Of a stretch of 64,000 nucleotides of DNA, positions 54,913 through 58,918 are shown piece after piece; positions within the stretch are counted from its first letter, which is position 1, and every line of letters starts with the position of its first letter. The notes under the pieces are model-generated. The model was given only the letters and a program-made list of their open reading frames with translations, had not been told where the DNA came from and did not search any database. The translations under genes and the position numbers were made by a program. The stretch comes from Escherichia phage GADS24, in the sequence record OQ703618.1; one strand, written 5' to 3'.

Positions 54913-55914
54913 TTATTTCAGTAAAGTTACTTCAGAGATTTCCTCCCAACCATCTTTATCAGTTGAAATAAAATCTGCTACATAAAGAGCCGTACGTAAT
55001 GATACGTTGCGAAGACGAGATACGTTAGCCTTCATCCAGGACAATGCTTTATACGTTTCTGCATCTGTCAGACCACGTTTCTGCATCATGTCAGTAGATA
55101 ATATTACATCTTCAACTCGAACCATAATCTCTTCATTAGAGTGTACTCCAAGGTCAAGATACACTGAACGAGATACTAAAGCTTGAAGGTGTGGGGCAAG
55201 CTTCGAACCGCGTTCTAACTCTTTATCGATATCAACGTTTGTAATGAAAACGATAGTACCTTCAAACTCAAATTCTTTATCAATACCCTTATCATCGAGA
55301 TAAGATGACGCAGTGCTCCAACAAACTTTGCGTTTATCTCCGGTATCTAATGCTGCTTTAAGAAGGTTCAAGATGTCCATATCTGAGAATACGTCAACGT
55401 CGTCGATTAAGAGAACGCTATCTGCATCACGGTTGAGCCAAAGTTGTTCGTAAAGGCCTATACCAGAGATTTTACCATTAATGCTTTTGTATTTGATGAA
55501 ACCATTATCATTAGCATTATTAAGTGCTTTATCCAGAGAATACGTCTTACCAATACCAGCTGCACCTGAAATAATGAGTGAACGAATTTTGCCATCGATA
55601 ATGCCATTCGTCATCATGTTCATTACTTTAAAGCGTTTGTTGATACGAGTTTTCATATCTTCAGTGCTTTCAACAACTGCAACTGGTGATGTCTCAACTC
55701 CTTCCATTACGATGTCTGATTTGAAGACCCATACTCCACGTTCAGAACCATCAATCATAACGAAAATTTTACCATCACCTAAGTGGGAACATTCAGGATT
55801 AAGCTTTGCCGGGAACCAGGTCTTTGTGGCAACATAAGAACCAGAGATTTCGTTATTACGATAGATACCTTTTTTGATTTGAACGTTGAACATTTTATTC
55901 TCCAATTTACTCAT
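54913..55914 (-). CDS. P-loop ATPase (AAA-like)
   Basis: 333 aa; Walker A GAAGIGKT and Walker B LLIDDVD. Confidence 0.55.
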   Translation of the reverse strand: MSKLENKMFNVQIKKGIYRNNEISGSYVATKTWFPAKLNPECSHLGDGKIFVMIDGSERGVWVFKSDIVMEGVETSPVAVVESTEDMKTRINKRFKVMNMMTNGIIDGKIRSLIISGAAGIGKTYSLDKALNNANDNGFIKYKSINGKISGIGLYEQLWLNRDADSVLLIDDVDVFSDMDILNLLKAALDTGDKRKVCWSTASSYLDDKGIDKEFEFEGTIVFITNVDIDKELERGSKLAPHLQALVSRSVYLDLGVHSNEEIMVRVEDVILSTDMMQKRGLTDAETYKALSWMKANVSRLRNVSLRTALYVADFISTDKDGWEEISEVTLLK

Positions 55915-56238: not shown

Positions 56239-56261
56239 TACTTTTTAAAAATATTTTAACC

Positions 56262-56284
56262 CCCTAAAGGGACCCGAAGGTCCC
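56262..56284 (-). terminator. GC hairpin, weak terminator
   Basis: Stem gggacc/ggtccc, UUCG loop on minus, short T-run. Confidence 0.35.
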
Positions 56285-56289
56285 CATAT

Positions 56290-56571
56290 TTACTTATCGC
56301 ACTTAGCAACATAATTAGGCATATCACAGAATACGGAGCGAGTAACTACTCGACCCTTTGACCATGCTTCAGTTGCTTGTCCAGCCGTGCTATTAATATA
56401 GCTTGATTTAATGTTCTCAATACCCTGAGAATGTGATGCATTTACAGAACCATTAGAAGGCCCAGAAGACTGGTTACCACCAGCTCCTGCACTACCGCCA
56501 GCAGAACCCGTGGTAGCACCAACAGAGAATGCCATCATTACTGCGAATAAACCAATTACTAATTTTTTCAT
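56290..56571 (-). CDS. secreted Gly/Ser-rich protein with signal peptide
   Basis: 93 aa; signal peptide; late promoter upstream. Confidence 0.45.
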   Translation of the reverse strand: MKKLVIGLFAVMMAFSVGATTGSAGGSAGAGGNQSSGPSNGSVNASHSQGIENIKSSYINSTAGQATEAWSKGRVVTRSVFCDMPNYVAKCDK

Positions 56572-56602: not shown

Positions 56603-57592
56603 TTATTTATAGTAAGAATTATGATTTTCGAGATAGACTTGTTCAAGGAAGTCATCCCAGAAACTCATATCTACTTTTTGTTGCATACCGTTCTTGGCAG
56701 CTTGTTCTGACGCATGTTCAACTTGGTCAACGATATCTTCTAGGAATTCTTGTACAGTTTTAAACGTATGTTTACCAAGCTTAACATCAAGAATAAATGG
56801 AGCATCCTGAAGTGGGTAAACCAGGTCGCCTGTTTTGTAAATTTCTAATAATTGAAGTCCACCACGACATGCATGACTCAATGCTTTCCAGTCAATACCT
56901 TCGTTAGCTTCTGCCTTACGAGCACGTTCGCCATAGTTCTCTTCTAGTTTAACAAGGATGGCATTGAACTCTTTATTGGTTAACGTGTCTTGGAATTTAC
57001 GGTCCAACAGATTATAGAATGTTTGCTTACCTGTTTTCTCGTTTTCGGTTTCAACCCATGAAGCAAATTCACCTACAGGCAGAACATTCTTCATATGTGA
57101 TAAACGAATTACTGCCCCATTATCAAAGTATTGTCCCCATTCATTAGAACGTTTAAGGGCTTGTCGAAGAACAGCCAATCGAGAACCCTTGACGCCATAT
57201 TTAGAAGCTTGCTTACGGACATACCCTAAATAAGATTTCATGTTAGTGGTATAGAAACGAGACCTGTTATCTTGAATATGCTTCCATACATCAGGCAAAT
57301 CAGATTTAACTACTAGACTTTGTGGAGTGTGAAGCATATCTAATGCGACGGTTTCACCATCTGCAGCTAGTTTAAAGAAATATTTGAGACTATACAACTC
57401 ATGGTCCACGTCGTCTTTTGTGTTCTTAGAAGACGTGTTATTCGTGTTCTTGCTCATATGTTCTTTAACGTTACCGGTCAAGATATCACGAGCATGAGGG
57501 ACATAAATTTCTTTAAAATCGACGTCAGATTCAGGAGTAGACGTTCCATAAAGGTGACTACCAAAGTAGCCTTTCATAATTGTTTTCATCAT
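56603..57592 (-). CDS. nucleotidyltransferase-domain protein (MNT/pol-beta superfamily)
   Basis: 329 aa; N-terminal GSHLYGTSTPESDVD (GS-x9-D-x-D) motif. Confidence 0.55.
   Translation of the reverse strand: MMKTIMKGYFGSHLYGTSTPESDVDFKEIYVPHARDILTGNVKEHMSKNTNNTSSKNTKDDVDHELYSLKYFFKLAADGETVALDMLHTPQSLVVKSDLPDVWKHIQDNRSRFYTTNMKSYLGYVRKQASKYGVKGSRLAVLRQALKRSNEWGQYFDNGAVIRLSHMKNVLPVGEFASWVETENEKTGKQTFYNLLDRKFQDTLTNKEFNAILVKLEENYGERARKAEANEGIDWKALSHACRGGLQLLEIYKTGDLVYPLQDAPFILDVKLGKHTFKTVQEFLEDIVDQVEHASEQAAKNGMQQKVDMSFWDDFLEQVYLENHNSYYK
56604..56611 (-). promoter_or_regulatory. T4 late promoter TATAAATA
   Basis: Exact TATAAATA on minus ~32 nt upstream of 56571 ATG. Confidence 0.5.
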
Positions 57593-58062
57593 TTAGCCTT
57601 ATATTCAAGAGTAGGACAGACTTTTTCTTTACGAGCTTTAAGGTATTCACCTATTAATGATTTCTTACGTTCAATAGGCTCTAGTCCATTTTTAATTCGT
57701 TCTTGGTTTTGTGCAATGAGCTCAATTTCTTTATAATATTTTCTGTCGTTATATTTGTCTAACAACCAAGACGGGCCAATTACCAACCCGGTAGCAATAA
57801 AAGCCATGACTGCTACCATTAAAATGCCTACGCCAATTGAGGCCGGAACTAATGCCCATAGACTGCTAAAAACAAAGAATCTAGTTAAAAATTCCTGGCC
57901 AATGATTACGACTGCTGCTAAAATAGCAAATCCAATAATTGAAACAGCCAATACTGGGATTAACGTTTTCCAAAAATAAGCACACAACGTTTTCGGACGA
58001 TTCCATGTACTATTGAACATGGCATAAATTTTAAAGTGCCAAGAGTTTTCATTGATAATCAT
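57589..58062 (-). CDS. integral membrane protein
   Basis: 157 aa, several hydrophobic helices. Confidence 0.45.
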   Translation of the reverse strand: MIINENSWHFKIYAMFNSTWNRPKTLCAYFWKTLIPVLAVSIIGFAILAAVVIIGQEFLTRFFVFSSLWALVPASIGVGILMVAVMAFIATGLVIGPSWLLDKYNDRKYYKEIELIAQNQERIKNGLEPIERKKSLIGEYLKARKEKVCPTLEYKAK

Positions 58063-58071
58063 AATAATTCC

Positions 58072-58602
58072 TTATTTCAAAGTCGGGATAATAGAATCAA
58101 GATAAGCTTTAAGAGCAACTGCTTCATTTTTGTCTAATGTAATGATATGTTGACGAAGGTCGTCAATTTGGCGAATAACTACGACATCACCGTCTTCATA
58201 AGAAGGATTAACTCCCAGGACTGTTGTATAATCAGGGCGGTCCTGATTTGTAATAAAAGCATTACGGCATTTAGCCCATTGAAGTTTGGCCTTTTTGGCT
58301 GTTTCAGATTCCATGAATTCTTTCACTTTAGCGACGAATGTTTTCCAATTATTAATAGAAAAACATTCGTCTTCAGTTTCGATATTAACCCCACTATAAA
58401 GTCCGTGATAAAAACGAACTTGAAGGTCTTCATTAATGTTAATTACAGATGCATGGCCGGGTGGATTGAGTTTCAAAATCTTGTCCAGTTCCATAGGAAG
58501 AATAGTAGCAGCATCATCTTCTTGTGTCAGAACATACACATAACCACGTTTTTCGATACATAAATCACCAAACAACTCGGTCGTTTCAATTACAGTTTTC
58601 AT
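58072..58602 (-). CDS. hypothetical protein
   Basis: Start at MKTVIETT. Confidence 0.45.
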   Translation of the reverse strand: MKTVIETTELFGDLCIEKRGYVYVLTQEDDAATILPMELDKILKLNPPGHASVININEDLQVRFYHGLYSGVNIETEDECFSINNWKTFVAKVKEFMESETAKKAKLQWAKCRNAFITNQDRPDYTTVLGVNPSYEDGDVVVIRQIDDLRQHIITLDKNEAVALKAYLDSIIPTLK

Positions 58603-58918
58603 ATTATTCACCAATTAAAGTTTCGACAAAATTCACCAAAGCATTCTGGCAAGCATCAACCTGATTTTCATAAAAGTCCACGTTATCATTTACCGCATGA
58701 TAAGCTACATCATTCAAATCTGAATCGGCTTCACGTAAGTCATGGATAAGGTCCATCAATTTATTAGCTTGTTCACGGGTCATTTTACCATACTCGTTTC
58801 AATAAGATTCACTATGCCGTTTACCATGTTATAAGTAAACATCGGATAATTGTATTGTACTACAACATAAGCGATAAGCAAAAGTTTCATTTTGTTCTCC
58901 ATTTGTTTTGGTAGGATT

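Follow-up and report, generated by a model that had tools for sequence, protein, structure and literature searches.

Which reaction is catalysed by the nucleotidyltransferase (NTase) encoded between the thymidine kinase gene and nrdC in an Escherichia phage of the T4 type, and what does this reaction serve? The question is raised by an uninterrupted open reading frame of 329 amino acids at positions 56603-57592, minus strand, in the ORF list of the window, which is the whole 64,000-nt stretch of phage DNA analysed here. An earlier note on this DNA had given exactly these coordinates, which stand, with no mention of the strand; it described the product as a minimal NTase of the Pol-beta superfamily and left its function open between host protein nucleotidylation, anti-defence and RNA 3' tailing. 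The reading frame opens with ATGATG, two adjacent start codons, and the length of 329 amino acids counts from the first of them. Deposited records of the gene differ in this choice, giving 328 amino acids from the second ATG and 329 from the first. The first ATG overlaps the TGA stop codon of the upstream gene as ATGA.

Family, active site and fold of the encoded protein

The Pfam family RlaP (PF10127, RNA repair pathway DNA polymerase beta family) matches the protein with an E-value of 3.7e-13 and 50.2 bits against a cut-off of 23, the match being restricted to residues 7-152 of the protein and to positions 23-148 of the 249 in the profile. Precomputed matches to PF10127 are present on all close homologues of the protein. 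The RlaP family was reportedly named by Burroughs and Aravind in 2016. Over its full length the protein matches phrog_388, annotated as 'nucleotidyltransferase', with an E-value of 1.2e-125. These two matches, together with the alignment of the catalytic aspartates described below, bear out the earlier description of a phage-encoded NTase of the Pol-beta superfamily, and we hold it to be nearly certain that the predicted protein is an active Pol-beta nucleotidyltransferase of the RlaP family.

In phage T4 the corresponding protein is NrdC.11 (NP_049709, labelled 'nucleotidyltransferase'), which is 78% identical over the full length. NrdC.11 is encoded on the same strand and at the same place in the early region from tk to nrdC, all conserved motifs are common to the two proteins, and the main difference between them is an indel-rich segment at residues 150-175. 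At the DNA level the gene is 98.8% identical to that of Escherichia phage JN02, labelled 'putative nucleotidyltransferase', and 98-99% identical to its counterparts in numerous Mosigvirus phages (RB69-like, T4-type) infecting Escherichia and Shigella, the group to which the window belongs; NCBI proteins named 'nucleotidyltransferase' are 100% identical over 328 amino acids. Judged from the ORF list, from the PF10127 and phrog_388 matches and from the identity to T4 NrdC.11 and to the JN02 gene, the complete reading frame (56603..57592, minus strand; 329 codons and a stop) is the Mosigvirus orthologue of T4 nrdC.11 and encodes a long-form NTase of the RlaP family. When 1.84 billion representative proteins were scanned in full, 3,229 relatives emerged at E-values of 1e-3 or below, and homologues of NrdC.11 occur in 1,509 of the 50,697 phage records searched, mostly in T4-type phages. 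The gene is already annotated, has been placed in the RlaP family and has been singled out in the literature.

Canonical short RlaPs belong to the same Pfam family as the window protein and have in common with it the active site, composed of GS, DxD and a third aspartate, and apparently the succession of an NTase domain and helices. They differ from it in being some 60-80 residues shorter. Two insertions set the window protein apart, a loop (residues 45-60) and a beta-sheet (about residues 177-201), and its alignment with short RlaPs is significant only over the N-terminal ~130 residues. The NrdC.11 type is a distinct long paralogue within the RlaP family: the long form stands beside the short form in bacterial genomes, as described in the next section, and the two are therefore paralogues.

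The earlier note had derived the superfamily from an N-terminal GS...DxD signature, and this signature is present. The peptide YFGSHLYGTSTPESDVD is found in the translation, and residues 11-25, GSHLYGTSTPESDVD, encoded at 57518-57562, have the form GS-x10-DxD. Taken alone, a motif as short as G[SG]-x9-13-D-x-[DE] is weak proof, and the homology rests on the profile matches. Conservation was assessed in an alignment of 56 diverse relatives with 34-52% identity, from which the T4 sequence was left out. G11, G16, S22, D23, D25, Y132, R223, R243 and G273 are invariant in this alignment, and S12, D61, D63, D85, K131, K135, D234, W235, K236 and H240 are conserved in at least 90% of the relatives. 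Comparison of the long-form profile with 15 canonical short RlaPs by hhalign gave a probability of 94.8 and an E-value of 4.8e-8 over 116 columns (query columns 5-131). It pairs GS with GS, D23 and D25 with the DYD of the short form, and D63 with the invariant D88; the counterparts in short RlaP are G37-S38, D49, D51 and D88, the last lying in 'LDxNGWD'. Translation, conservation and profile pairing together suggest that the signature G11 S12...D23 V24 D25 (57518..57562, minus strand) supplies the nucleotide-binding loop and two metal-binding aspartates. The third catalytic carboxylate would be D63, within D61-V62-D63 (57404..57412, minus strand) on strand 62-68, as judged from the translation, its conservation and its alignment with D88. 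The earlier note had raised the possibility that the catalytic aspartates would be lost once properly aligned; among the 56 relatives D23 and D25 never vary, D63 reaches at least 90%, and all three match short RlaP positions, so that the predicted catalytic triad D23/D25/D63 is intact.

A further conserved segment, DWKALSHACR (56864..56893, minus strand; D234, W235, K236, H240, R243), is a candidate triphosphate- or RNA-binding helix by its conservation and by a spacing common to short RlaPs, in which K-x3-[YH]-A-x-R also occurs (K165..R172). An hhalign comparison of the C-terminal halves pairs these motifs with an E-value of only 0.06 over 27 columns, and the common motif is suggestive without being significant.

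Placement within the superfamily by structure prediction and profile comparison, which the earlier note had proposed as a check, gave a confident NTase fold and, by hhalign, led to RlaP. The AlphaFold2 model has a pLDDT of 93.7 and a pTM of 0.84. Residues 3-68 form its alpha/beta core; the further elements are helices, a small beta-sheet (about residues 177-201) and a C-terminal bundle of helices. The strands of the core (3-10, 24-31, 45-49 and 62-68, with helices) belong to an N-terminal Pol-beta NTase core of approximately residues 1-135 (57188..57592, minus strand), the only part of the protein that the Pfam RlaP model and the short-RlaP profile cover. The C-terminal region, approximately residues 136-329 (56606..57187, minus strand), comprises the variable beta-sheet insert (~177-201) followed by the helical bundle. 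This region, which lies outside the Pfam model, is found in the long NrdC.11 subfamily alone. Its ~200 residues presumably constitute the RNA-recognition part and, on an hhalign E-value of 0.06, have no demonstrable equivalence to the RlaPs that have been assayed. The whole fold is common to many 'nucleotidyltransferases' of phages and giant viruses. The PDB gave no meaningful sequence match to the protein, to the long-form profile or to the short-form profile.

Genomic surroundings in phages and in bacteria

The order of genes around the NTase is T4-like, running from thymidine kinase through rI, a MobD.1/y05I-like gene, a membrane protein, the NTase and a NrdC.10-like gene towards nrdC. The MobD.1 homologue (58072-58614, minus strand) matches the Pfam families T4_y05I_N and T4_y05I_C, a putative transcription factor. 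The gene immediately upstream of the NTase encodes a 157-aa protein (57589-58062, minus strand) that the PHROG scan assigns to phrog_944, 'membrane protein', and whose translation has two visibly hydrophobic stretches, in agreement with the membrane-protein flank claimed earlier. In T4, by contrast, the position directly upstream of nrdC.11 is occupied by the homing endonuclease gene mobD. On the downstream side the ORF list holds a 93-aa protein with a signal-peptide-like N-terminus (56290-56571, minus strand) and a 91-aa protein, and T4 differs from the window phage in having neither of these two small reading frames. Further downstream lies the NrdC.10 homologue of 333 aa (54913-55914, minus strand), which carries the Walker-A motif GAAGIGKT and has weak matches to AAA_22, AAA_16 and nSTAND3, all below threshold.

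The last codons and the stop of the NTase gene (TAC TAT AAA TAA) contain TATAAATA, the consensus of T4 late promoters (56604-56611, minus strand); the start codon of the 93-aa reading frame follows 33 nt downstream. Four copies of TATAAATA occur in the window, none of them on the plus strand, where chance alone would give 7.1 copies in the window. The end of nrdC.11 in T4 has no TATAAATA, and T4 has no 93-aa reading frame. By its sequence and position the site fits a promoter serving the extra 93-aa gene. The downstream flank had been described as a late-expressed secreted protein; the signal-peptide-like N-terminus agrees with the second half of this description, and late expression is plausible, resting only on the TATAAATA motif. 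A scan for sigma-70-like promoters around the NTase gene found 14 sites against 11.4 expected, no excess over chance. Between the 93-aa and the 91-aa reading frames, at 56258-56284, lies a GC-rich hairpin with T-runs on both strands that resembles a bidirectional terminator.

For a wider view of the surroundings we collected 79 viral and 80 bacterial or archaeal loci and clustered the neighbouring reading frames. The phage set, made up of the viral loci, reference loci and the window, amounts to 83 loci. Two neighbours recur in it, the upstream membrane protein (44 loci) and the downstream NrdC.10 (36 loci), both in T4-type synteny only and both absent from the bacterial loci. Accordingly, we do not at present regard them as functional partners of the NTase. 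Inspection by eye of the neighbours in divergent phages, among them NadV/NatV-like proteins, helicase, primase, DNA polymerase and methyltransferase, brought out no pattern. A homologue of RNA ligase 1 (Rnl1) lies within 8 kb in only two of the 83 loci, no ligase was found within 8 kb of the NTase gene of the window, and none of the 83 loci has a short RlaP, the long form occurring singly in phages. In an uncultured phage (L003, 8001-9978; L004, 556-2533), an RlaP homologue 35% identical to the window protein is followed 4 nt on by a 334-aa protein with an AcrVA2-like match (PF26125), and a gene for a CCA-adding enzyme (PolyA_pol and HD) lies about 5 kb downstream of the RlaP homologue.

The bacterial and archaeal relatives in the 80 loci are 33-42% identical to the window protein, and their surroundings are of a different kind. 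Genes of RNA repair occur within 6 kb in 16 of these loci, with RtcB in eight, TROVE/Ro60 in four to six, Pnkp in four, Hen1 in three and RtcA in two; Pfam confirms representatives of all five in the bacterial loci. By a rough estimate, RtcB would be met in well under 1% of random 12-kb bacterial windows, and the linkage to repair genes is for this reason strongly non-random. Linkage to RNA-repair genes is a feature of canonical RlaPs as well as of these closest bacterial relatives of the window protein.

In at least 17 of the 80 loci a short canonical RlaP follows directly downstream on the same strand. The short proteins of these tandems have 252-289 aa and match PF10127 over its full length with 175-240 bits. 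Taken together, the linkage to repair genes and the tandem copies imply that the NrdC.11 type belongs to RNA-repair modules in bacteria. The juxtaposition of the long and the short paralogues suggests that they act together, and their roles are probably not identical. Possibly the two forms make up a bacterial two-enzyme module in which the long RlaP differs from the assayed short one in substrate or nucleotide specificity, and of which phages would have retained the long half only. The main text of the preprint on the family discussed in the next section makes no mention of tandem or paralogous RlaP copies (PMC12776372).

Tandem pairs were seen in loci L089, L091, L096, L102, L106, L109, L119, L131, L137, L140, L147, L150-L153, L155 and L158. 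The ends of the paired genes often overlap, and the pairs lie inside Hen1-Pnkp, RtcB/RtcA or TROVE clusters. One of these loci (L151, 2077-7790) contains Hen1, Pnkp, the long RlaP and the short RlaP with overlapping gene ends. An apparent fusion of the long and the short form into a single protein of 601 aa, in L150, was rejected as an artefact of the ORF caller in GC-rich DNA.

Probable addition of nucleotides to RNA 3' ends and the competing explanations

Two members of the family, the RlaPs of Pseudomonas fluorescens and P. aeruginosa, were characterised in a preprint of December 2025 (PMC12776372). They extend RNA 3'-OH ends by one or two NMPs, dNMPs being accepted as well, work best with Mn2+, act on the nicked-tRNA 5' half in preference to the acceptor 3' end, and leave DNA and E. 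coli proteins unlabelled (PMC12776372). They partly restore the aminoacylation of a tRNA short of one anticodon-loop nucleotide (PMC12776372). Labelling by these enzymes extends to full-length tRNAs and to RNAs of rRNA size and discriminates little between NTPs, and the authors point out that non-specific addition of NMPs would mostly give wrong repair products (PMC12776372). In the similarity network of the family, T4 NrdC.11 falls into cluster 5 and the characterised RlaPs into cluster 1a (PMC12776372). That RlaP refills the nucleotides excised by RloC before ligation, in phages included, is an earlier prediction (PMC7824862).

With two members of PF10127 assayed, the function is less open than the earlier note had it. 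On the combined evidence, the NrdC.11 type appears to add nucleotides to RNA 3' ends in RNA repair, a reading to which we give a probability of roughly 0.6. The family, the triad, the fold and the bacterial repair linkage are observed here for the phage protein and its relatives, and the 3'-OH activity is taken from the literature on the two Pseudomonas enzymes; we infer that NrdC.11 has the activity of the latter and that its targets in vivo are nuclease-trimmed tRNAs. In this mechanism, two metal ions bound by D23, D25 and D63 would make the 3'-OH of a broken RNA reactive, and one or two NMPs would be passed to it from NTPs in a template-independent step. During infection, cleaved tRNAs whose 5' half has been shortened by RloC-type anticodon nucleases of the host would regain their lost nucleotides in this way. 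The phage Pnkp, acting as 3'-phosphatase and 5'-kinase, and RNA ligase 1 would then seal a full-length anticodon loop and translation would continue. This particular role, the refilling of RloC-trimmed tRNA ahead of sealing by Pnkp and Rnl1, is offered as a tentative one.

The sealing enzymes are present in a near-identical relative of the phage. This Mosigvirus genome, 97.9% identical across the NTase gene, encodes RNA ligase 1 and polynucleotide kinase some 80 kb away. Rnl1 of T4 is a 5'-phosphate ligase. Ligases of this type need a 3'-OH, as is left by RlaP (PMC12776372), and the requirement of RNA ligase 1 is compatible with the RlaP product. Among the 50,697 phage records, homologues were found in 1,509 for NrdC.11, in 1,673 for Rnl1 and in 2,105 for Pnk, with almost identical counts at the genus level. 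The co-occurrence of the three is consistent with their cooperation without being independent proof of it; we set aside the genus-level agreement as independent evidence because it follows phylogeny and is expected from the shared ancestry of T4-type phages. A deletion from nrdC.11 to mobD.3 in T4 is viable (PMC9825161). One record of Escherichia phage T4 (OL964745.1, 159,752 bp) keeps only residues 291-329 of nrdC.11 and therefore represents a viable deletion, consistent with the published one (PMC9825161). The tolerance of T4 to the loss of nrdC.11 fits an accessory, host-dependent role in counter-defence.

The same chemistry might serve another end than anticodon repair: the mending or maturation of tRNA 3' (CCA) ends, those of phage tRNAs included, or a tailing of host or phage transcripts that alters their stability. 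The labelling of full-length tRNAs and rRNA-sized RNAs with little NTP specificity, the gene for a CCA-adding enzyme 5 kb from the RlaP homologue of one uncultured phage and the missing physical link to a ligase in phages all point in this direction. Yet the closest bacterial relatives adjoin Pnkp, Hen1, RtcB and RtcA rather than CCA-adding enzymes or decay factors, and the assayed enzymes favour the nicked 5' half over the acceptor end, which makes such a role unlikely. A protein of the host or of the phage would be the substrate if the enzyme acted by NMPylation or AMPylation, as MntA does on HEPN toxins and DrrA on Rab, and a host function would thereby be taken over or disabled. The window protein has the Pol-beta superfamily fold and the GS...DxD signature in common with the MNT/MntA antitoxins, and the earlier note had called it minimal. 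This qualifier has to be dropped. MNTs are single-domain proteins of ~100-140 aa with a HEPN-toxin partner, whereas the window protein has 329 aa, a large C-terminal region and, in Pfam and PHROG scans, no HEPN family in the eight neighbouring reading frames; it scores 12.9 bits with the MntA model NF047752 against a cut-off of 60, and 13.2 bits with PF01909 against a cut-off of 21. Given that E. coli proteins stay unlabelled by the assayed RlaPs and that the genomic context of the family is RNA repair, we consider modification of a protein quite improbable. Of the three options in the earlier note, RNA 3'-end addition serving anti-defence through tRNA repair is the best supported and protein nucleotidylation the least.

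Synthesis of a nucleotide or oligonucleotide signal, or of a decoy, comparable to the oligodeoxyadenylate of HalB, would give the phage a means of deceiving a guard system of the host, for instance Hailong, or of keeping it silent. HalB (PDB 9dbh/9dbj) is the nearest solved structural neighbour of the long RlaPs of the NrdC.11 type; it works in host defence and its products are DNA oligomers; the window gene, by contrast, belongs to a phage and to a family of RNA repair. The likeness is confined to the common NTase core. HalB reportedly primes on a C-terminal tyrosine (Tan et al. 2025), and a corresponding residue was considered in the window protein, which ends in SYYK. This tail is not conserved among its relatives, the identity to HalB is 16%, and no HalA-like partner is encoded nearby, so that membership in the HalB group was rejected. 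The protein has no match among the PADLOC defence models, CD-NTases included, and the assayed RlaPs stop at one or two additions and require an RNA 3'-OH; oligomer synthesis appears very improbable, and the locus data support the two-enzyme module proposed above better than an oligomer signal. Transfer to a small molecule, after the manner of kanamycin or lincosamide NTases, is suggested by the Foldseek search of the PDB, whose top match is KNTase (1kny; E-value 1e-3) and in which LinB and ANT enzymes also appear. Comparisons with antibiotic NTases, however, give TM-scores of 0.25-0.37 at 8-10% identity, Pfam and NCBIfam scans of the protein find no antibiotic-NTase family, and the early region of a lytic phage offers no rationale for such an enzyme; this activity is hardly to be expected. 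Its length and C-terminal region, the MntA score, the lack of a HEPN neighbour and of a PADLOC match, and a likeness to antibiotic NTases that does not go beyond the fold lead us to conclude that the protein is neither an MNT nor a CD-NTase nor an antibiotic NTase.

RNA repair was first recognised as a counter-defence in the classic T4 system. If the refilling of RloC-trimmed tRNA were confirmed, NrdC.11 would supply the third enzyme still missing from the tRNA repair pathway of T4, and would account for the phage response to nucleases that have evolved so as to render repair useless. The idea of refilling after RloC is already in print, and the window adds no new instance of the biology. What may be useful is the finding that the phage enzyme falls into a separate long subfamily, which bacteria have in tandem with a canonical short RlaP in repair operons. 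A correction of gene names may be useful as well: a large share of GenBank and UniRef entries misname the nrdC.11 gene 'thioredoxin', apparently by propagation from the locus name, and the Pfam scan detects no thioredoxin similarity in the NTase protein.
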